Assembly: GCF_030028105.1 (NCBI RefSeq)
Contig: NC_092375.1
Location: forward strand, 145,947,415-146,011,414
DNA from: Mobula birostris
Taxonomy: Eukaryota
Length of the DNA: 64,000 nt
Direction: 5' to 3'
A program made the translations under genes and the position numbers. The notes under the pieces were generated by a model. The model saw nothing but the letters and a program-made list of their open reading frames with translations. It had not been told where the DNA came from and ran no database searches. Of this stretch, positions 6,497 through 59,778 are shown in pieces; the first letter of the stretch is position 1; each line of letters opens with the position of its first letter.

Positions 6497-8792
6497 ATGG
6501 GAAAGGCAAGGGCTACTCAGAAAATGAACTAAATGAGAATTCTTCATGAACACCTGAGCAACTATTAACACAGATATGTTTCTTCCCACAGATCATCTTC
6601 TATGAGGACAGGAACTTCCAGGGTCGGCACTATGAGTGCAGCTCCGACTGTGCCGACCTCTCCCCTTACTTCAGCCGCTGTAACTCCATCCGTGTCGAGA
6701 GTGACTGGTGGGTGTTGTACGAGAGACCCAACTACATGGGATACCAGTATGTCCTGAGCAGGGGAGAGTATCCTAACTACCAGCACTGGATGGGATTCAA
6801 TGACTGTGTCAAGTCCTGTCGCAGTTACCCACCTGTAAGTTTCAATTTTTTTTCAGGGCATTTGACTTTTTTCAGTTTGTCTCTATAGATGGGGAATTTG
6901 CCCAGCAAGTACCTAATGGGTTTCAAATATGCCTGTGTGTATTAACATTAGATTAGATTAGATTATGAGGACACTCAGTCCTCGTTTATTGTCATTTAGA
7001 AATGCATGCATTAAAAATGATACAATGTTCCTCCAGAGAGATATCACAGAAACACAGGACAAACCAAGACTAAAACTGACAAAACCAAATAATTATAACA
7101 TATAGTTACAACAGTGCAAAGCAATACCGTAACTTGATAAAGAGCAGACCATGGGCACGGTAAAAAAAGTCTCAAGTCGCGATAGCCCCATCATCTCACC
7201 CAGACTGTAGAGGGGAGAAACTCTCCCTGCCATGAACTCCAAGCACCGCAAACTTGCCGATGCATTGGAAGCACCCGAACGCAGCCGACTCTGAATCCGT
7301 CCGAAAACTTCAAGCCTCCGACACCGAGCACCGAGCACCATCTCTGCCGAGTGCTTCAACCCTGCCCCGGCCGCCGAGCAACAAGTAAAGCCGCGGACTC
7401 GGGGCCTTCCTCTCCGGAGATTCTCAATCACACAGTAGCAACGGCAGCGAAGAAGGCATTTCAGAAGTTTCACCAGATGTTCCTCCGTGCTCTCACGTCT
7501 GCCTCCATCAAATCAGGATTGTGCACGGCACCGTACTTGACAAATAACGGATATCATCATCACTGGAGTGGCCGCTGCAAGCTGCGTCGCGCTGTCATCT
7601 TCTCCTCCCATCGGGCATTTCGATGTGAAATGGAAGTAGTGTGGAGTCTCTTAAAGAGCAATAAGGTGGATAAATCTTCACATCTTTCCTATAAATCTGG
7701 AGTATTGCATGCAGTTTTACACTGTTATATGAATGATGGTGAGACTTTAAATGATGCAGAAAAGGCTTATCAGGATTCTGCCTGGATTAGAGAGATTGTG
7801 CTATAATGAGAGATCAGAAAAACTTGGGTTGTTTTCTTCTGGAGTGGTGGAGTTTCAGAGGGAGATCTGATAGAGATTTATGACAGGCATAGTTAGAGTA
7901 GAGAGACAGTATCTTTTACCGGGTTTAAAATATCTCATACCAGATGATAAACATATAAGATGAGAGGATGTGAGTTCAAAGGAGATGTGAGGGGCAAGTT
8001 TTTTACACAGAGAGAGGTGGGTGTCTGGAATGGACTGCCCGGAGTGATGATGGAGGAAGATACATTTGGAACTTTTAGGAGATGTTTGGATAAGCACATG
8101 AATGTGAGGGAAGTGGAAGGATATGGGCACTGTTTAAGCAGAAGGGATTAGTTTAGTTGTCCGTTTAAGTTAAATAGCCAACTAACCCTTTAAATTTTCT
8201 AATTTAATTAGTTGGGCACAACAGTGTGGACCAAAGAGTCTGTAACTGTGCTTTACTGTTCTATGTTCTATGTTCTAAGTGCAGAATTTCTCATATTTAA
8301 TTTTGCTGTTTTCTTCTTTAACTTCTGTTTGAACCAGCAACAATGCCGGTTGGAGGCATCGTTGAGGCAAATGATTAATGAAATGATCAAATTACATCTG
8401 ACTTTATTTCCCATTGAAGTCAATGTCTAGTTTGTAAAATAGTGCTCAGATGTAGTGTAGAATGAGTGAATGATTTACAAAAGATCACTACTAAAGTTCT
8501 GTGTTTCCTATTCCAGTACCGAGGTGGAAACTACAGGATGAGAATTTACGAGAGGTCTGACTTTGCAGGGCAGATGATGGAATTCATGGACGACTGTTCC
8601 TCAGTCTACGATCGTTTCCGTTACCGTGACATCCACTCCTGTCAGGTGATGGATGGTTACTGGATCTTCTATGAACATCCCAACTACAGAGGCCGACAGT
8701 ACTTCCTGAGACCCGGGGAATACAGGAGATACAGTGACTGGGGTGGCTACAACTCAATGATCGGGTCCTTCAGGCGCATGAGAGACTTCTAA
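6497..8792 (+). CDS. Gamma-crystallin (shark gamma-S1-like), copy 1, intact; exons 6497-6505, 6592-6834, 8517-8792; 175 aa
   Basis: Spliced translation is MGK|[40 protein letters not shown]...CRSYPP|[16 protein letters not shown]...GSFRRMRDF*. It has the classic gamma-crystallin layout of a 9-nt exon 1, 243-nt exon 2 and phase-0 introns. TATAAA is at 6432 and AATAAA at 8843. Intron 1 is GC-AG and intron 2 is GT-AG. Confidence 0.95.
6949..7608 (-). mobile_element. ~650-bp non-autonomous retroposon inserted in intron 2 of copy 1
   Basis: Reverse complement of the elements at 25424 and 45811, with a (TCTAA)n tail. It is absent from intron 2 of the other copies. A CAT duplication at 6946-6948 and 7609-7611 is possible. 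Confidence 0.8.
7620..8275 (+). mobile_element. Decayed CR1 3' remnants in intron 2 (homologs at ~21180-21920, 37235-37730, 43880-44440, 58530-59270)
   Basis: Peptides KVDKSPGPDGIYPRL and [21 protein letters not shown], and a TTCTATG-type tail. Confidence 0.8.
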
Positions 8793-16314: not shown

Positions 16315-18810
16315 ATATGAAAATACCAGAAGTTACATTGGATATGCTTAACGTGGTTATAAATACAACCACAACTGGAAAAAATACCAGTAGTGATAAT
16401 ATTCATAAATATTGGTATAAAAATGTACCTGCCTTTATTCGTACCTATTAACGCATGTCAACAATTTTCTTAACATCCTGAAAAAGTGTCCGAATTTTTG
16501 ACAGAAGTTACTACTTACCCCTTACCTAAAGGAGAAATCACACATGATCCATCAAAATATTTTCCTATTACTTGTTGACAAAGTATATACAAATTTGTCA
16601 CATCATGCATCTCACAACTAATTTCCACTCTTAGATAACCACTATATACTTAAAGAAGAGCAGAAAGGATGCCGTAAGGGCATGAAAGGATGCAAAGAAC
16701 AACTGATAATAAATTCTGTAATTCCAAATCAAGCTTGGAGGAAATGCAGAAAACTTCCATGTTGTTATTGAGACTTAAAATATATAAACCATACCCAATA
16801 TTTGTGAAATTCTTTCAACATCTGATCAAGCATTGGTGTACTATCTTTTAACAACCAAAAGATAACTACCACTGTTATCAAAATAATGCGAGGCATTTTC
16901 CAGCTTGACTCTATAAGCCCACTAGGTTTTTGTCCAGCATTAAACCCTTCTCTAATTTACTGAATCTGATGAAAATAATTCAAATCAGAAACAACCGAAT
17001 GAATTGTACCTTGACACACCTATCCATGGACAATTTGAAATTATATACCCCTTCATCAGTAAAGCTAAAGCAAGTAATTCAAAAGGTATAACTATTTTCG
17101 AATGATATAAACATGTACTTTGGACTAATAAGCGCAGAATGTTAAACATAAAGAAAGTTGCAATATTGCTAATAGAATATAAAACAGAGCAGCAGGATAC
17201 AATACAAGTGATGGATAACCATGAAATATGTAAGTATTTGGGACACCAACAAGCAAACAAAACAGAACATTGCAAAATAAAGGGAAAACATTCAGCAGAA
17301 TTTATTTCAAGGCTTAAGAAAATCTTTCAAACAGAGCTCAATAGTAAAATATAACAAGGGTAATAGATACTTTCACTACAGCCATATTGATGTATTGAAT
17401 AAGAACTGAAATGAGAAACTTTAGAAAACACTATTGACCCTTGAAAACACTAAGGAGAGAAAGAGGAAAAGGAATAACTGACATAAAAAGTTTACACAAT
17501 AGTCAGTTAAGACTCCTAAGGATATAGTTTCATCAATGTAAACAGGATCCAACGTTCCATGCGAGTATATGTAATTCTCATAAGTACACACAAATGAACA
17601 TAAATGAAGGAATTATCACTGTAGAAGAAAAAGTTAACCAATGAAACAGCATGACCCTCCATGGAAGACCTCTCCATGATATGAGCAAAGTAGATGTCAA
17701 CAAGGAAGCGTCAAATGCCTGACTCTGAGTTGGAGACTTCTTCCCAGAAACAGAAGGATTCCTTGTGGAAATGCTGGACCAGGTGGTTAACACAAAAATG
17801 ATCAAAAATACATAATAAAAAAACAACAAATTCAAGACAATTAATGCAAAAAATGCCAGGAGAAACCAGAAGCAATCCAACAAATTACAGGATCCTGTAG
17901 CAGTTTAACTCAATCTGATTACTTACACAGGTGCAATCAAAAGGCAAATATAATTCACTGAAATCTTGCGTTAGAGTACAAACTCATAAAAGACACCATA
18001 CCTTGCTATAAATCTGGTCTTATCCAGTTTTAGAGTCAGAGTTTGACAAATTATATGCTGAACAATTTGTGATTAACGCTAGGACAATCTATAGTAACCG
18101 TCCGGATATAATAATACAGGATAAACAAGCTCGAACAACTTGCTTACCAGATGTAGATATTATAAGCACACATAACCTACAGAAATCAATAAGTTTAAAA
18201 CACCAGAAATATACTGAATTAAAAGAGAAAATTGAATGCCTATGGACTATGAATAGGTTATTCATTATCCCATTTGTAATATAGAACATAGAACAGTACA
18301 GCACAGTACAGGCCCTTCAGCCCACAATGTTGTGTCGACCCTTAAACCCTGCATCCCATATAACCCTCCACCTTAAATTCCTCCATATACCTGTCCAGTA
18401 GTCACTTAAATTTCGCTAGTGTGTCTGCTTCCACCACTGACTCAGGCAGTGCATTCCACACACCAACCACTCTCTGAGTAAAAAACCTTCCTCTAATAAC
18501 CCCCTTGAACTTCCCACCCCTTGCCTTAAAGCCATGTCCTCTTGTATTGAGCAGTGGTGCCCTGGGGGAGTGGCGCTGGCTGTCCACTCTATGCATTCCT
18601 CTTAATCTACAATTGGTACATCCCAAAGTCACCACAGAATTGCATTAAACAGTTAGGGATAGATGACAATATCTGTGATTGAAGTTCCAGAAAGTCACAG
18701 TACTAAACACCACTCGAATAGTCCGAAAATTCATAGCAATTAAGAAATGAGTGTGCACAGCAATTCCTGTACCTCAGGTTTTACCAGCGTGAGCAGAAAA
18801 AAGAAAGTAA
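16315..18810 (+). mobile_element. R4/Dong-clade element remnant including the C-terminal restriction-like endonuclease; interrupted by CR1 at ~18280-18608
   Basis: RT motifs as at 445-1371, plus NRPDIIIQDKQ...KY.ELK..IE.LW (18069-18284). Confidence 0.75.
18280..18608 (-). mobile_element. 5'-truncated CR1 3' end
   Basis: Peptide TRGHGFK...GRFFTQRVVGVWNALP and tail ATAGAACATAGAAC. Confidence 0.85.
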
Positions 18811-20746: not shown

Positions 20747-22438
20747 ATGGGAAAGGCAAGGACTACTCAGTAAATGAACTAAATGAGAATTCTTCATGAA
20801 TACCTGAGCAACTATTAACACAGATATGTTTCTTCCCACAGATCATCTTCTACGAGGACAGAAACTTCCATGGTCGGCACTATGAGTGCAGCTCGGACTG
20901 TGCCGACCTCTCGCCTTACTTCAGCCGCTGTAACTCCATCCGTGTCGAGAGTGACTGGTGGGTGGTGTACGAGAGACCCAACTACATGGGATACCAGTAT
21001 GTCCTGAGAAGGGGAGAGTATCCTGACTACCAGCGCTGGATGGGATTCAATGACTGTGTCAAATCCTGTCGCAGTTACCCATATGTAAGTTTTACTGTTT
21101 GGCTCTGAAAATGGAGAATTTGCCCAACAAGTACCTAATATGTATCAAATGTGTCTGAGTGCATTAGTATGCCCGGGTATTTCAATGTAAATGAGGAAAT
21201 AGTGTTGAGTCTCTTAAAGACCATTCAAGTGAATATGTCTACAGGGCCTGATGAAATATACCTCTGGTTATTGAGAGAGGCAAGACATTGGATAACTGGA
21301 ACATTCACTAAAATCTTCACATCTCTTCCAACCATCTGGATTTTTGCATGCAGTTTTGGTCACACCGTTATAGGAATGATATCAAGAGTTTGGAGAGGGT
21401 GCCGAGCAGGCTTTTCAGGATGATGCCCAGTTTAGATAGCATGTGCTATGACAAGAGGTTGGACAAGCCTGAGTTATTTTCTCTGGAGTGGTGGAGGCTA
21501 AGGGAAGGCCTGACAGAGCTTTGTAAGATTATGAGGGGCGTAGATAGAGTAAACAAACGGGATCTTTTTCCCAGGGTTAAAATATCTCATACCAGAGAAC
21601 ATGCATATAAGGTGAGCGGGTGTGAGTTCAAAGAAGACGTGAGTGGCAAGTTTTTACACAGAGAGGGGTGGGTACCTGGAAACCACTGACAGGGGTGGTG
21701 TTAGCAGACACAATAGGGGGATTTAAGAGATGTTTAGTTACACACATGAATGTGAGGGAAGTGAAAGGGTATGGACATTGTTTAAGCAGAAGGGATTAGT
21801 TGAGTTGGCCATTTAATTTAAATAGCCAACTAAATTTAGATTTACTAATTTAGTTGGTTTTGCACAACATTGTAGGCCAAAGGGCTTGTTCCGATGCTCT
21901 ACCTGTTCTCTGTTTATGTTCTAAATGCAGAATTTCTCATATTTTTCCCTGAGTTTTCTTTTACCATATGTTAGAACCAGCAGCAACGCTGGTTGGAGGC
22001 ATCTTTAAGACAAATAATAAGTGAAATGATCAATTTGCATCTGACTTTAACGCCTATTGAAGTCAATGTTCAGTTTATGAATTGATGTTCAGATGTCGTG
22101 TACAATGAGTGAATGATCTCTCAAATATCATGAGTAAAACTGCTTTTTAAAATCTATTCCAGTACCGAGGCGGCACCTACAAAATGAGGATTTACGAAAG
22201 GCCTGACTTTGAGGGGCAGATGATGGAATTCATGGAAGACTGTCCCTCTGTCTATGATCGTTTCTGCTACCGTGACATCCACTCCTGTCAGGTGCTGGAT
22301 GGCTACTGGATCTTCTATGAACATCCCAACTACAGAGGCCGACAGTACTTCCTGAGACCTGGGGAATACAGGAGATACAGTGACTGGGGTGGCTACAATT
22401 CAACTATTGGGTCCTTCAGGCGCATGAGGGACTTCTAA
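20747..22438 (+). CDS. Gamma-crystallin copy 2, intact; exons 20747-20755, 20842-21084, 22163-22438; 175 aa
   Basis: Exon sizes are the same as copy 1 (9/243/276). The frame is open: [22 protein letters not shown]...RSYPY|[16 protein letters not shown]...RRMRDF*. TATAAA is at 20682 and AATAAA at 22489. Confidence 0.95.
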
Positions 22439-43423: not shown

Positions 43424-44903
43424 ATGGGAAAGGCAAGGGCTACTCAGTAAATGAACTAAATGAGAATTCTTCATGAACACCTGAGCAACTAATAACACAG
43501 ATATGTTTCTTCCCACAGATCATCTTCTACGAGGACAGGAACTTCCAGGGTCGGCACTATGAGTGCAACTCCAACGTTGCCGACCTCTCTCCTTACTTCA
43601 GCCGCTGTAACTCCATCCGTGTTGAGAGTGACTGGTGGGTGTTGTACGAGAGACCCAACTACATGGGATACCAGTATGTCCTGAGCAGGGGAGAGTATCC
43701 TGACTACCAGCACTGGATGGGATTCAATGACACAATCAGGTCCTGTCGCACCTACCCTTACGTAAGTTCAATTTTTTTTAAGGAATTTTATCCTTTGCAG
43801 TTCATCTCTTAAGATGGAGATTTTGCCTAGCAAATGCCTAATGGATATTAAATACGCCCAAGTTTATTAATATACTAGGGGATTTCTATGTAAAGGAGGA
43901 GGTAACGTTGGATCTCTTAACAAGCATTAATATATCCCAGTTTATTGTGAGAGACCAGAGATGAGATTGCTGAGATCTTGACCAAAATCTTCATGTCTTT
44001 TCTCGCCATAAGGTGTATTACAGTTTTCACTGGAGCAGCGGAGGTTGAGAGGAGAACCGATTGAGATTTATAAGTTCATGAAAGTCATATTTAGAGTAGA
44101 CAGGTGGTGAAATTATCTAATACCAGAGGACATGCATTTAGGGTGAGATCATGTAAGTTCAAAGGAGATGTGAGGGGCAAACATTTTTTACAGCATGGTG
44201 GGTGCCTGGAATGCGCAGCCTGGGATGATGTTGGATGCAGATACATTACTAACTTATAAGAGATGTTTAGTCACATGGACGTGAGGGAAGTGGAAGGATA
44301 TGGACATTGTTTAAGTCGAAGGGATCAGTTTAGTTATCCGTTTAATTTAAATAGCCAGCTAAATTTAAATTTATGAATTTAATCGGCTGGGCACAACATT
44401 GTGGGCCAAAAGACCTGTCCTGTGCTCTACTGTTTCTGTCCAGAATTTGCTTTCCTTTAATTTATGTTAGAACCGACAGCAAAGCCATTTGTTGAGGCAG
44501 ATAGTGAAATGATCAATTTGTATCTGACTTTATTTTCCATTGAAGTCAATGGCCAGTTTATGAACTGGTGTTCAATGCTTGAATGCTCTACAAAGCGTCA
44601 TTACTAAAACCGTGTTTCCTATTCCAGTACCGAGGGGGCATCTACAGGATGAGGATTTACGAGAGGCCTGACTTTGCAGGGCAAATGATGGAATTCATGG
44701 ATGACTGTCCCTCTGTCTATGATCGTTTCCGTTACCGTGACATCCACTCCTGTCAGGTGATGGATGGTTACTGGATCTTCTATGAACATCCCAACTACAG
44801 AGGCCGACAGTACTTCCTGAGACCCGGGGAATACAGGAGATACAGTGACTGGGGTGGCTACAACTCAATGATCGGGTCCTTCAGGCGCATGAGGGACTTC
44901 TAA
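43424..44903 (+). CDS. Gamma-crystallin, third intact copy; exons 43424-43432, 43519-43761, 44628-44903; 175 aa
   Basis: The frame is open: [30 protein letters not shown]...[13 protein letters not shown]|[16 protein letters not shown]...RRMRDF*. TATAAA is at 43359 and AATAAA at 44954. Confidence 0.95.
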
Positions 44904-48814: not shown

Positions 48815-49598
48815 CATCAGTGTGACCAAAGAGTTGATTGTGGACTTCAGAAATGCTAGGATGAGGCTACATGAACCAATTTTCATAGAGGGATCAGAAG
48901 TGGAGAGAGTGAGAGGTTTCATGCTCCTGGGTGTCAAGATCTTTGAGGATCTAACCTGGTCCCAACATATCGATACAGTGATAAATAGGGAAAAATAGCG
49001 GTTGTATTTCATTTGGAGTTTGAAGAAATTTGGCATGTCACCTAAAACCTTGAAAGCTTCTGCAGATATACTGTGGAGAGCATTCTGACAGGCTACATCA
49101 CTCTCTGGTATCGGGGGCGGGGAGGGCGGTGTTTCTAATGCACAAGATCGAAAGAAGCTATAGAAGGCTGTACAATTAGTCAGCTCCATCTTGGGTTCGA
49201 GGCTCCATTGTATCTAAGACATCTTCAGGGAGTGGTGCCTCTGAAAGGTGGTGTCCATTATTAAGAGCCCCCTTCACCAAGGACTTGCCCTCTTCTCATG
49301 GTTACCATTAGGAAGGAGGAACAGAAACCAGAAGGCATGCACTCAGTGATTCAGGAACAGCTTCTTCCACTCTGCCATCCAATTTCTAAATGGATATTGA
49401 ACCCATAAACACTATCTCACTTTTATTTCTTGCACTATTTTTAATTTAACTATTTAATATCCATATATATTCTTACTGTAATTGATTTATTCATTTTTTC
49501 TTTCTATAATATCATGTATTGCATTGTACTGCTAAGTGAACAAATTTTATGAGATCTGTCAATGATATTATTTGAGAAGTTAATTAATTGATTCTGAG
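48815..49598 (+). mobile_element. Rex1/Babar 3' end
   Basis: Peptide TKELIVDFRN...EVERVRGFMLLGV.I, AT-rich 3' UTR and ATTCTG tail remnant. Confidence 0.78.
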
Positions 49599-49614
49599 TC
49601 AATTGAGAAATGAT

Positions 49615-51389
49615 TGTCACAACCATGGATTTGGCAGTGCAGTAGATACAGCAATTGCGTTTGTAAATATGCATGTGTCAGCTAATTATTATTTAATCAT
49701 GATAGTTAACAAAGTTCACGTCACATGCCAGTGATAATAACCCTGATTCTGATTTAACTCCATACTTGTTGATGTAGTGCTTGTTGAGACTTGGACAGAG
49801 CACAGCAACCCTTCACTGCCTGTCTGCTTTGGCCTTCCCTGAGATATTGGACTGTCAAGTCAAGTGACTCTGAAGGCTAGCGGTATTCATTTAACGTTAA
49901 GATGTTCTATTCAGCCGCAACGTGGGCTTCGTTTTCCATTCGAGAGTTTTAGTTAATGGCCCTGTTTGTCCTAGCGTTTATTGTTTATTTTTCCCTTTAA
50001 CATTGTTCGCATTAAAGTCTGTGAACTCTCGACCTGCTTCAGTGTCTCTCACTCCACACCTGGGCCATATCCGAACCTGGTAACAACTCCTCTCTTGTGA
50101 CAGTTATCATGAGCACCTCTGAGGGAAGTTCTACTGTGAGAGCAGAGAAATATGTGAGAGACTGAATGCTGAAGGAATAGTTCCATCTGCTTTGACATCA
50201 ATGATGATCTGATTGCACCTGAAACTCTGGCATTTCTTCATTGTGAATCCAGTACTTCCGAAAAGCTCCTTTATACTGTACCAATAAATAACTCAGACAC
50301 GGGCCAAGAACATCCATCTTATTGTGGTCCACAGGTCTGTCTCTATTGAATATAATGCAGTAACAAATGATTGTCTGACTCCAAAAAATAAAACAAAATG
50401 CTTGATGCAATTCTCTGCTTCACGTAGTAAGTAGATACATGCTTAGATAATCGTAACTTATGCACAAAATACTCTTTGTACTGGTCATTTGAGCTAAATA
50501 TTGATTGAAACCCGTTGGCTTTCCACTCATCTCTAAGAGTGGTCAAGGCTCTAGCCGCAGTAGCTATGGGTGATGCACAACATATTGATTGTGGTTAAGG
50601 AGGTGTATTGAAAGCTAATCATTTCATGCTGAGTATTCAACAATGAGAAACCCCTCACATGACTCCAATTGAAATTACATTTGAAACTTTTCAAAAACTA
50701 ACCAGGTGGGCCATTGAGATGACATTTTGACAGTGCTTCACAGTTCTTCATTATTCAACAATTAGATTTGATCCCTGCCCCATCACAAGCCATCACTCTC
50801 TCACCTAACCCTGCCACCTTTAATACCCTGCGAAAAGACGGGCTCCCAGAGAAAGGACAAGCAAATGGTTCATCTCAGCATTCAGTCTCTCAAATATTTC
50901 TCTGCTCTCATAGTAGGACTTCCCTCAGAGGTGCTCATGATAACTGTCACAAGAGTGGAGTTGTTACCAGGTTTGGATATGGTCCTGGTGTGGAGTGAGA
51001 GACGCTGAAGCAGGTTGAGAGTTCACAGACTTTAATGCAAACAGTGTTAAAGGGAAAAATAAAACAATAAACACTAGGCCAAACAGGGCAATTGACTAAA
51101 ACTCTCAAATGGAAAACGGAACCTCCACTGAGGCTGAAAAGAACACCTGAACATTAAACGAATACCACTAGTCTTCAGAGTCAGTTGACTCGACAGTCTA
51201 ATTTCTCAGGGAAGGCCGAAACAAACAGGCAACGAAGCGTTGCTGTGCTCTGTCCAAGTCTCCACAAGCACTACGATGACAAGTATGGAGTTAAATACAC
51301 TCACGATTAAATAATAATTAGCTGACACGTGCATATTCACAAGCAGATTTTGCCGTATCTACGGCGTTGCCGAATCCATGGTTGTGACA
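49615..51389. mobile_element. 1.78-kb element with long inverted terminal arms (LTR-like) and 5-bp TSD ATGAT
   Basis: 49615-~50190 is the reverse complement of ~50858-51389. Termini are TGTCACA...TGTGACA. ATGAT lies at 49610-49614 and 51390-51394, and the empty site is visible in other units (26330, 63350). Confidence 0.85.
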
Positions 51390-51409
51390 ATGATTGTGTT
51401 TTAGCAAGC

Positions 51410-52435
51410 AATAAATATAGAGAACATGAGATGAAGAGTCCTTGAAATTGAGTCTATAGGTGGTGGGAACAGTACTGTGATGGGCTGGTGAAGTTAAGTG
51501 AAGTTATCCCCTCTGGTTCAAGAGCCTGATGCTTGAGGGGTAACAAGTGTTCTTAGATAAGCTGGTGTAAGTCTTGAGGCTCCCATACCTTCTTCCTGAT
51601 GGCAACAGTGAGAAGAGAGCATGTCCTTGATGATGAGGGTCCCTGATGATGGATGTTGCTTTGCTGCGACAGCGCTCTGTGTAGATGTGCTGAATGGTGG
51701 GGAGGGCTTTACCCATAATGGACTGGGCCGTATCCATTACTTTTTGGAGTATTTTCCATCCAAGTGTATTGTGTTTTTCAATACCTGGCCATGATGCATC
51801 CAGTCAATATGCTCTCCACAACACATCTATAGAAGTTTGTCAAAGTTTTAGATGTCATGCTGAACTTTCTCAAACCTCTAAAGTAGAGGAGCTGCTCTGC
51901 TTTCTTTATTATTGCACGACATTGATCAGCCACCTGTATTCAGCCAGATGAGTCAAACATGATTTGCCTTCAATAATCTCTGCTGGGCAGAGTGCAGGTC
52001 CTCTGAAATGATAACACAAAGGAATTTAAAGTTGCTGAGCCTCTCCATCTCTGATCCCCCGATGAGGGCTGTCTCATGGCACTCCGGTTTCCTCCTCCTG
52101 AAGTCAGTAATCAGCTTCTTGGTCTTGCCTGTGGTGTATCTAGCTGATGGAGTTTAGGGAGGAGAATTTGTTGCCAATCCAAACTGACTGGGATCTGCAA
52201 GTGAGGAAGTTGAGGATCCAATCACACAAAGAGGCATTGAGACCAAAGCATTGAAGCTTACTGATTAGTTTTGAGGGAATGATGATATTGAATGCTGAGC
52301 TGTAGTCCATAAAGAGTATTCTGTTGTATGCACCTTTCCAGAATGGAATGAAGAGCCAGTGAAATGGAACCTGCTGTGGACCTCTTGTGCCAGTTGGCAA
52401 AATGGAGCAGATCCAGGTCACTTCTTGGGCAGGAG
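51410..52435 (-). mobile_element. Rex1/Babar remnant
   Basis: Peptides [23 protein letters not shown]...[10 protein letters not shown] and DTAQSIMG...LFSLLPSGRRY. Confidence 0.8.
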
Positions 52436-58076: not shown

Positions 58077-59778
58077 ATGGGAAAGGCAAGGACTACTCAG
58101 TAAATGAACTAAATGAGAATTCTTCATGAACACCTGAGCAACTATTAACACAGATATGTTTCTTCCCACAGATCATCTTCTACGAGGACAGGAACTTCCA
58201 GGGTCGGCACTATGAGTGCAGCTCCGACTGTGCTGACCTCTCCCCTTACTTCAGCCGCTGTAACTCCATCCGTGTCGAGAGTGACTGGTGGGTGTTGTAT
58301 GAAAGACCCGACTACATGGGATGCCAGTATGTCCTGAGAAGGGGAGAGTAACCTGACTACCAGCGCTGGATGGGATTCAATGACTGTGTCAAGTCCTGTC
58401 GCAGTTACCTATATGTAAGTCTCAGTTTTTTTTCAAGGAATTTGATCTTTTGCAGATTGGCTCTGTAAGCAAAGAATTTGCCTAGCAAGTGCCTAATGGG
58501 TATTAAATATGTCTGAGTGCATTATTATACTCGGGTACTTCAAGGTGAAGGAGGCGGTAGTGTTGTGTCTCATAAAGACCATTAAGGTGGATAAGTCCCC
58601 AGGGCCTGATGGGATATATCCCAGGTTACAGAGAGAGGCAAGGGATGAGATTGCTGGGACAATGACCAACAACATCATGTCTTTTCTAGACATCTGGAGT
58701 TTTGCATACAATTTTGGTCACACCATTACAGGAATGATGTCGAGACTTTGGAGAGAGTGCAGAAGAGGCTAATCAGGGTGCTGCCTGGTTTAGAAGATTT
58801 GTGCTATAATGAGAGGGCGGGCAAACTTGATTTGCTTTCCCTGGAGCGGCGGAGGTTGAAGGGAGATCTGATAGAGGTTTATGGGATGCATAGATAGAGT
58901 AGACAGACAGTGACCTTTTCCCATGTTAAAATATCTCCTATCGCAGGGCATGCAAATAGGTTGAGAAGGTGTAAGTTCAAATGAGATGTGAGGGGCAAGT
59001 TTTTTCACACAAAGAGTTGCGGGGACCTGGAATGCGCTGCTCGGGGTGATGTTAGAAGCAGATACATTAGGGACTTTTAAAAGATATTTAGGTCGGCACA
59101 TGATGTGAGGGAGGTGGAAGGATATGGATATTGTCTAAGCTGAAGCGATCAGTTTAGTTGGCCATTTAATTTAAATAGCTAACTAAATTTAAATTTACTA
59201 ATGCAATTGGTTGGGCAGAAGTCTGTGGGCCAAAGGTCCTGTTCCTGTGTTCTTATGTCTGATGTTCTATATTCTAAATGCAGAATATCTCTTATTTTTT
59301 CCTGTGTTTTTCTTTAACTTATGTTTGAAACAGCAACAATGCTGGTTGGAGGCATCACTGAGGCAGATAATAAATAAAATGACCAAATTGCACCTGATTT
59401 TATTTCCCATTGAAGCCAATGAATTGGCTATTCAGATGTAGTGTATAATGAGTGAATACTCTACAAAATGTAATTACTAAATCTTTGTGCTTCCTATTCC
59501 AGTACCAAGGTAGAAACTACAGGATCAGGATTTATGAAAGGCCTGACTTTGCAGGACAGATGATGGAATTCATGGATGACTGTCCCTCTGTCTACGATCG
59601 TTTCGGATACCATGACATCCACTCCTGTCATGTCATGGATGGTTACTGGATCTTCTATGAACATCCCAACTACAGAGGCCGACAGTACTTCCTGAGACCC
59701 GGGGAATACAGGAGATACAGTGACTGGGGTGGCTACAATTCGACTGTTGGGTCCTTGAGACGCATCAGGGACTTCTAA
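58077..59778 (+). pseudogene. Gamma-crystallin copy with nonsense codon (Y63*); exons 58077-58085, 58172-58414, 59503-59778
   Basis: All splice sites are intact, but TAT>TAA occurs in frame at 58349-58351. The poly(A) signal is mutated to AAGAAA (59829-59834). There are also promoter substitutions and an upstream deletion. Confidence 0.88.

Follow-up and report, generated by a model that had tools for sequence, protein, structure and literature searches.

The window, that is, the whole stretch of 64,000 nucleotides analysed here, is a tandem cluster of beta/gamma-crystallin genes on contig C7 of the 4.0-Gb genome, with crystallin frames at 6550-6885, 8466-8789, 20800-21105, 22151-22435, 43477-43809, 44583-44900 and 59452-59775 that represent at least 4 or 5 gene units; three of the exons were matched by Pfam Crystall (E 5e-30 to 5e-36). 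Between the crystallin gene copies at ~43.5-44.9 kb and 57.8-59.8 kb lies an insertion with two inverted arms, bounded on either side by ATGAT (49610-49614 and 51390-51394, forward strand). The exact ATGAT pair, together with the uninterrupted, empty-site-like sequence found at 18737, 26323 and 63344 in three paralogous units of the window, indicates that the element entered in one event, generating a 5-bp target-site duplication (TSD), as an earlier note on this DNA had proposed. The arms align from the first TG at 49615 to ~50172 and from 51389 back to 50875, with 455 of the 511 aligned bases identical; the inverted repeats already recognized in the earlier note reach 85% identity between 49752-49998 and 51050-51296 and 94% between 49984-50172 and 50875-51063. 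Whereas the outer ends of the arms stand as given in that note, the inner ends, placed there at ~50190 and ~50858, had to be moved to 50172 and 50875. None of four open reading frames in the core matched Pfam at E 0.1, and the region 49000-52000 yielded no Rfam match. The element is a single-copy, old insertion, non-coding by Pfam and Rfam.

Searching the genome with the left arm yielded 4676 first-look candidates, 40 of which were scored. Among the 28 top matches examined, the repeat measures 415-428 bp and in most cases runs from TGTCACA to GGTAACA; 17 of the 28 are solo LTRs enclosed by a 5-bp TSD, exact in 12 and with one mismatch in 5 more. In the same set, GCAAGTCT(C/G)GAC follows three LTRs and a purine tract precedes four, and this placement of the primer site after and the purine tract before the family LTRs puts U3 outermost in both arms of the element. 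A purine run beside each LTR of the element could be read as a polypurine tract (PPT), which would reverse the LTR orientation, but this reading was rejected because the PBS and PPT of the family fix the opposite one. Since family copies end in GGTAACA, the LTRs of the element end at 50085 and 50962, and not at the inner TGTGACA that closes the units 49615-50102 and 50945-51389 delimited in the earlier note. The left LTR (U3-R-U5, 49615-50085, forward strand; ends defined by solo copies and their TSDs) measures 471 bp including a later insertion of ~46 bp (49706-49751, forward strand, boundaries approximate) that is confined to this LTR and matches the end of an abundant interspersed repeat (L042, L036, L037, L018). 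The right LTR (50962-51389, reverse strand; 428 bp) belongs to the same family and is inverted, again with U3 outermost. The ATTAAA that had been pointed out near the LTR's 3' end is present at 50011-50016 (forward strand), mirrored by TTTAAT at 51031; lying ~70 bp from the LTR end, it is a likely polyadenylation signal.

The family to which these LTRs belong includes a 5.3-kb copy, L037, with direct LTRs, broken reading frames and a near-exact TSD (AATAG/AATAA). In natural frames of L037, L033, L035 and L039, Pfam matches were obtained to RVT_1 (3.5e-22), RT_RNaseH (1e-27 to 4e-29), rve (9e-13) and Chromo (7e-11); SH3 was also found in family frames, and the matches to gag and protease were weak, below the curated cut-offs. 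The family thus has the Tf1/Sushi-type arrangement gag-PR-RT-RH-IN, in which the chromodomain is C-terminal, and its direct LTRs run TG...CA. The actual primer site of the family is GCAAGTCTCGAC, an 11-nt complement of which is located at LTR bases ~125-136, where GTCGAGACTT is the commonest form, the relationship being one of complementarity only; in the RNA fold of one natural, decayed 5' leader (L057) the primer pair was not formed (z 0.5, not significant). In the left arm, the LTR site that is complementary to the primer site, the predicted self-primer near the U3/R border, can be discerned in decayed form at 49785-49795 (forward strand). Judged by these sequence features, the arms are ordinary LTRs belonging to a Gypsy chromovirus family of high copy number, with a primer site complementary to its own LTR. 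Assignment to the Tf1/Sushi group is suggested by the chromodomain, the self-complementary primer site and the TSDs rather than by a reverse transcriptase (RT) tree; self-priming has been described for Tf1 and implicated in its vertebrate relatives in the available passages of PMC4600332.

The family also displays considerable structural variety. About 21 of 60 PBS sites (L055, L062, L075, L088, L091, L106, L111 and others) belong to a non-autonomous subfamily that shares the LTR and the first 75 and last 90 internal bases with the coding element and has a different 1.5-kb interior. A direct-LTR copy on C1 at 83.39 Mb (L036:7354-9447) contains an inverted internal RT segment, equivalent to two opposite-polarity switches in one molecule. 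In the direct copies L086, L110 and L113, the internal sequence passes abruptly into the 3' LTR midway along it, with no PPT or U3 start and with the outer TSD present, and L096 (C5:68.556 Mb) and L098 (C5:100.07 Mb) are tandem arrays, each with a shared middle LTR that is followed by a second primer site. Finally, the solo LTR L149 (C6:19224334) shows an apparent 6-bp duplication, GAGATC, instead of one of 5 bp.

The LTRs of the window's element are inverted, not direct, neither arm contains a PBS or the family PPT, and neither LTR has a TSD of its own, both being joined to the same host base. The ~670-bp core, described as unique in the earlier note, has one paralogue, at 85-86% identity, on contig C13 at 69.355 Mb. 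A genome search with the core matched only the core itself and this C13 locus (2 of 2 candidates), and a search with the junction leading inward from the LTR returned the two arms and two spots of the same C13 segment (4 of 4 candidates), the copy counts being lower bounds as both searches skip very common words. The continuation of C13 beyond the donor segment is also essentially single-copy, no LTR is present at the donor site or within the 30 kb fetched around it, and no second copy of the arm-core-arm unit was found in the genome searches. Read from the right arm, the element consists of the LTR and donor bases 1-795, followed by the reverse complement of donor bases 87-1 and that of the LTR. 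The long copy of the host segment (bases 1 to ~795) occupies 50163-50961 on the reverse strand, is 86% identical to C13:69355643-69356437 and is non-coding by Pfam and Rfam, and the short copy (bases 1-87) lies at 50086-50172 on the forward strand. The junction between LTR and donor is flush at the terminal CA, with neither primer-site letters nor shared terminal bases, and the captured piece is colinear with C13 genomic DNA except for indels of 16 bp and 11 bp and bears no poly(A).

The provenance of this segment also explains two features of the earlier note. The ~90 bp shared inward of each LTR had been compared there to a tRNA-iMet primer-binding site, an identification that fails because the inner TGTGACA and the putative PBS (GTTATCATGAGC) are donor bases 11-29, host DNA that is present on C13 without any LTR. 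In addition, the donor carries TTGTGACA, the complement of the first 8 bases of the LTR, 9 nt from the LTR junction (L002:1403-1410; window 50095-50102 and 50945-50952), and this match is the source of the misplaced LTR boundary. Scored with a target-site matrix built from 50 exact TSDs, the C13 site falls at the 72nd percentile, against a median at the 76th for true sites, a preference too weak to discriminate.

The point at which the strand turns lies on the 10-nt TGAATGCTGA (50163-50172, forward strand), which corresponds to donor bases 78-87 and, simultaneously, to the reverse complement of donor bases 786-795. Microhomology of at least 10 nt occurred in 3e-5 of random junction pairs (200,000 draws), and six inverted matches of at least 10 nt are present within 2.26 kb of the donor. 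When the donor segment was folded as RNA, the pairing probability of the 10-nt stem was near zero, so that priming by RNA fold-back is not supported.

Inverted insertions are not restricted to the window. Among the first 100 of 192 exact matches to the U5-end pattern there were two inward-facing pairs, the window element and L051 on C6, with U3 ends outward and the exact TSD TTAGG, in which LTR-PBS-gag-PR-RT is joined to an LTR in inverted orientation together with four letters of the primer site. We then surveyed 60 PBS-bearing sites, the first of the 100 listed among 198 matches (five already examined were left out and one close pair was merged): five of these copies are inverted (L054, L066, L080, L089, L090), 45 have a direct second LTR and 10 could not be resolved after extensions. 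A further 60 U5-end sites yielded two inverted units (L117, L122) and 29 copies with a solo-type TSD. These counts are samples of well-conserved ends on the first contigs, viewed in stretches of 5.4-6.4 kb, and the rates are rough. All eight inverted, U3-out units (5 + 2 + L051) lie inside an outer 5-bp TSD, exact in six (CTCTC, TATCC, TGGAC, ACCCT, AACTC, TTAGG) and with one mismatch in two (GTAAA/GTAAG, AGAAC/AGAAT). Each holds family sequence only, which in L080 is that of the non-autonomous subfamily, and the C13 segment is absent from all 120 surveyed stretches. The earlier note had considered that the architecture might prove unique; the exact element is indeed a one-off, whereas its architecture recurs with other contents.

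The switch points differ among the eight units, with short homologies at no fewer than six of the junctions. The minimal unit is L054 (C1:10597476; 547 bp, exact CTCTC), a whole LTR and primer site copied back through U3, in which the turn coincides precisely with the point of pairing between the primer site and its own complement in the LTR. L066 (C1:247386946) and L117 (C1:121084962) have a common junction of ~11-14 nt within different TSDs; as no rare LTR bases are common to the two, a recurrent hotspot is more probable than the copying of one unit. Three other loci were not counted as inverted: L172, the apparent partner of which is the 3' LTR of another element; L104, with a 22-bp inverted LTR piece after the PBS and no second end; and L176, a truncated LTR without a partner. 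An inverted arrangement of a different family was seen on C7 at 37.317 Mb (L188:7254-7635), where a 382-bp palindrome with two LTR-like arms is embedded in a TA run.

To the age of the insertion speak three sets of divergences. The arms differ from each other by 12.3% (7.9% without CpG), 21 direct LTR pairs of the family by a median of 12.4% (9.8% without CpG, range 6.6-13.8%); between the core and C13, the divergence amounts to 10.7% (10.0% without CpG). This agreement indicates that the capture dates from the period of activity of the family. A common origin of the two LTRs is weakly supported by their sequences: the family LTR tree is a star, in which neither arm lies nearer to its partner than to other copies, and the arms have one private base in common that was seen in 0 of 90 other copies, with 28% of unrelated pairs sharing at least one rare base.

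Traces of the element were also detected in other organisms. The best core-carrying sequencing runs were from organisms A, B and C, and no RNA run was found among the listed runs carrying the core. When contigs were aligned to the C13 locus, those of B, D and F continued into LTR sequence at the junction base. The inversion junction is represented in F by a contig in which position 1454 is connected to position 2188, the two lying on opposite strands, and in D by a contig that continues into arm sequence at position 2188 of the C13 locus. The donor site is bridged without an LTR by contigs of B, E and F, and by no contig of D; in run X10 of organism D (L002:1205-1387), no contig was found on the upstream side of the donor, and the LTR-joined contig has a depth of 24. 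No listed contig bridged the outer flanks of the element, and the evidence from other organisms thus concerns the inner junctions.

Taken together, the element is likely the product of a slip during reverse transcription, inserted by its two identical ends, and not a new transposon family. Very probably, a plus-strand cDNA switched to a template of opposite polarity, giving rise to DNA with two U3 ends that was inserted by the integrase; indeed, U3 is found at the start of either strand of the element, as expected of plus strands. One of the two readings offered in the earlier note, a composite of inverted LTRs integrated in one piece by an integrase, is supported. The process would have begun with the joining of the LTR U5 end to C13 DNA, a junction that is preserved flush in the element. 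We slightly favour read-through past the 3' LTR of an insertion on C13, the allele having later been lost, since primer-site letters are absent at the LTR-host junction, as expected behind a 3' LTR. Against this route counts that an LTR-bearing C13 allele was found neither in the assembly nor in the contigs of B, E and F. It is rather less probable that plus-strand strong-stop DNA jumped, without the help of homology, onto co-packaged host nucleic acid; in L051, L054, L089 and L104, where the strong-stop strand has apparently switched, primer-site letters are kept, in contrast to the junction here. Following capture by either route, the 3' end of the strand comprising the LTR and host bases 1-795 would have paired with host bases 78-87, located either on the strand itself or on another plus strand, and have been extended back through host bases 87-1 and the LTR to the tip of U3, the junction being visible in the element and the chemistry conjectural. 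The ends and the TSD suggest that the integrase then used two U3 ends and made the usual 5-bp duplication, after which the insertion would have undergone point decay and acquired one small insertion in the left LTR.

Several other histories could be envisaged for such a structure. Microhomology fold-back is also a signature of repair, and both the 10-nt fold-back at the junction and the host DNA from another chromosome would be compatible with a chromosomal repair event, in which a templated insertion copied an LTR-bearing C13 allele into the site. Repair is nevertheless improbable: both outer ends lie exactly at the first TG of the LTR within an exact 5-bp duplication, as in normal insertions of the family, and eight other inverted units with family-only contents have the same layout. 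Scarcely better are the chances of two cDNAs, each consisting of an LTR and read-through host sequence, having taken part in one integration event with their inner ends joined by microhomology-mediated end joining. The final sequence predicted would be the same (one TSD, two U3 ends and microhomology at the junction), and the sequences do not establish that one strand gave rise to both arms, but two rare read-through cDNAs would be needed in one event, and the switch in L054, L089 and L104 is found where the copy of the primer site ends, a position indicative of a slip of the plus strand in the course of reverse transcription. Independent landings of two LTRs in opposite orientations, which the abundance of the family (4676 first-look candidates) could suggest, are refuted by the LTR-host junction base common to both LTRs and by the presence of an outer TSD only, and an assembly artefact fares no better, given the junctions in contigs of other organisms; the 12% difference between the arms speaks against both, and we give this pair of explanations practically no weight.

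Membership in a known class of elements with inverted ends was considered as well. DIRS retroelements have no TSD and encode a tyrosine recombinase and RT; they were rejected in view of the exact 5-bp TSD with empty-site paralogues, and the core ORFs tested had no Pfam match. The other reading of the earlier note, a non-autonomous, Ginger-like family of DNA transposons with very long terminal inverted repeats (TIRs) that moves by cut-and-paste, could draw on the TGT...ACA termini, the inverted arms and the single TSD, and the termini of Ginger resemble those of Gypsy according to the accessible parts of PMC2836005. However, it is largely refuted by copy number, as the core and the LTR-host junction are found only here and at the LTR-free C13 donor; moreover, the arms are LTRs found elsewhere as solos and direct pairs, and other inverted copies of the family hold different contents. 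The TIR length and TSD do not fit either: in the portions of Bao et al. 2010 (PMC2836005) at hand, Ginger1 has 40-270-bp TIRs and 4-bp CCGG or CCGT TSDs, and Ginger2 has 50-180-bp TIRs and 4-bp TSDs with an RTATAY target, TSDs of 5 bp being mentioned only for TDD-4/5. The element resembles Ginger1 and Ginger2/TDD, as presented there, in its TGT termini, inverted ends and integrase-type insertion, but it lacks a transposase, is single-copy, has a 5-bp non-specific TSD and carries arms of 515-560 bp in which a retro-LTR is combined with host DNA, so that a Ginger-like origin is highly improbable. The preferred reading remains a reverse-transcription slip of the chromovirus.

In the sections available of PMC4600332 and PMC3601003, Tf1/Sushi-group chromoviruses share with the parent family the chromodomain integrase, self-complementary primer site, 5-bp TSDs and a poly(A)-like signal close to the LTR's 3' terminus; the element, unlike them, has inverted LTRs with two U3 ends and no PBS, PPT or coding sequence, and its replication by the normal cycle of an LTR element would not be possible. 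LTR-mediated retroposition, as described in the main text of Tan et al. 2016 (PMC5131818), is similar in that host sequence lies between pieces of an LTR element, is inserted as a unit and involves a microsimilarity-guided template switch. There, however, the host piece replaces internal sequence between the 5' and 3' LTRs, and the word 'inverted' does not occur in that main text, whereas the LTRs of the element are inverted; the microsimilarity described lies at the element-host junctions, which are flush and without homology in our case, where the microhomology is host-to-host on opposite strands. In HIV-1 proviruses, aberrant second-strand transfer gives rise to defective integrated copies with deletions (PMC12657518); plus-strand transfer errors are likewise at issue, but 'inversion' and 'inverted' are absent from the accessible text. 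One copy of a guppy endogenous retrovirus has an inverted 5' LTR, tentatively ascribed to recombination, with no analysis of TSD or junctions in the passages concerned (PMC5210030). Within the open-access literature searched, we found no mechanism for an inverted-LTR or two-U3-end integrant, the nearest cases, in the parts available, being this guppy retrovirus and the HIV-1 deletions (PMC5210030, PMC12657518).

Of the 50 PBS-bearing copies for which a second LTR was located, 5 are two-U3-end insertions. As LTR finders search for direct repeats, insertions of this type would be missed or split into unrelated solos. The inverted insertions imply that, in the germ line, a pair of identical U3 ends is acceptable to the integrase of the family, and they also mark the sites of mis-annealing of plus-strand cDNA in a self-priming element. 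To this, the window copy adds capture of host DNA from another chromosome, persisting across several species; if transcribed, its sequence could form a duplex of ~510 bp with 89% complementarity and a longest perfect run of 38 bp. It is conceivable, though we advance this only tentatively, that two-U3 cDNAs are routine in self-priming vertebrate chromoviruses (~1 in 10 two-LTR insertions here) and also carry single-copy host DNA from one chromosome to another within inverted repeats ready for the integrase. The window copy also makes the relation of integrase-type DNA transposons to LTR elements, as outlined in the available parts of PMC2836005, testable. If two-U3 cDNAs do behave in this way, an LTR retrotransposon could become, in one step, a host-capturing unit bounded by TIRs, the layout of which is what a DNA transposon of the Ginger/TDD type would need, had a copy kept the integrase gene.
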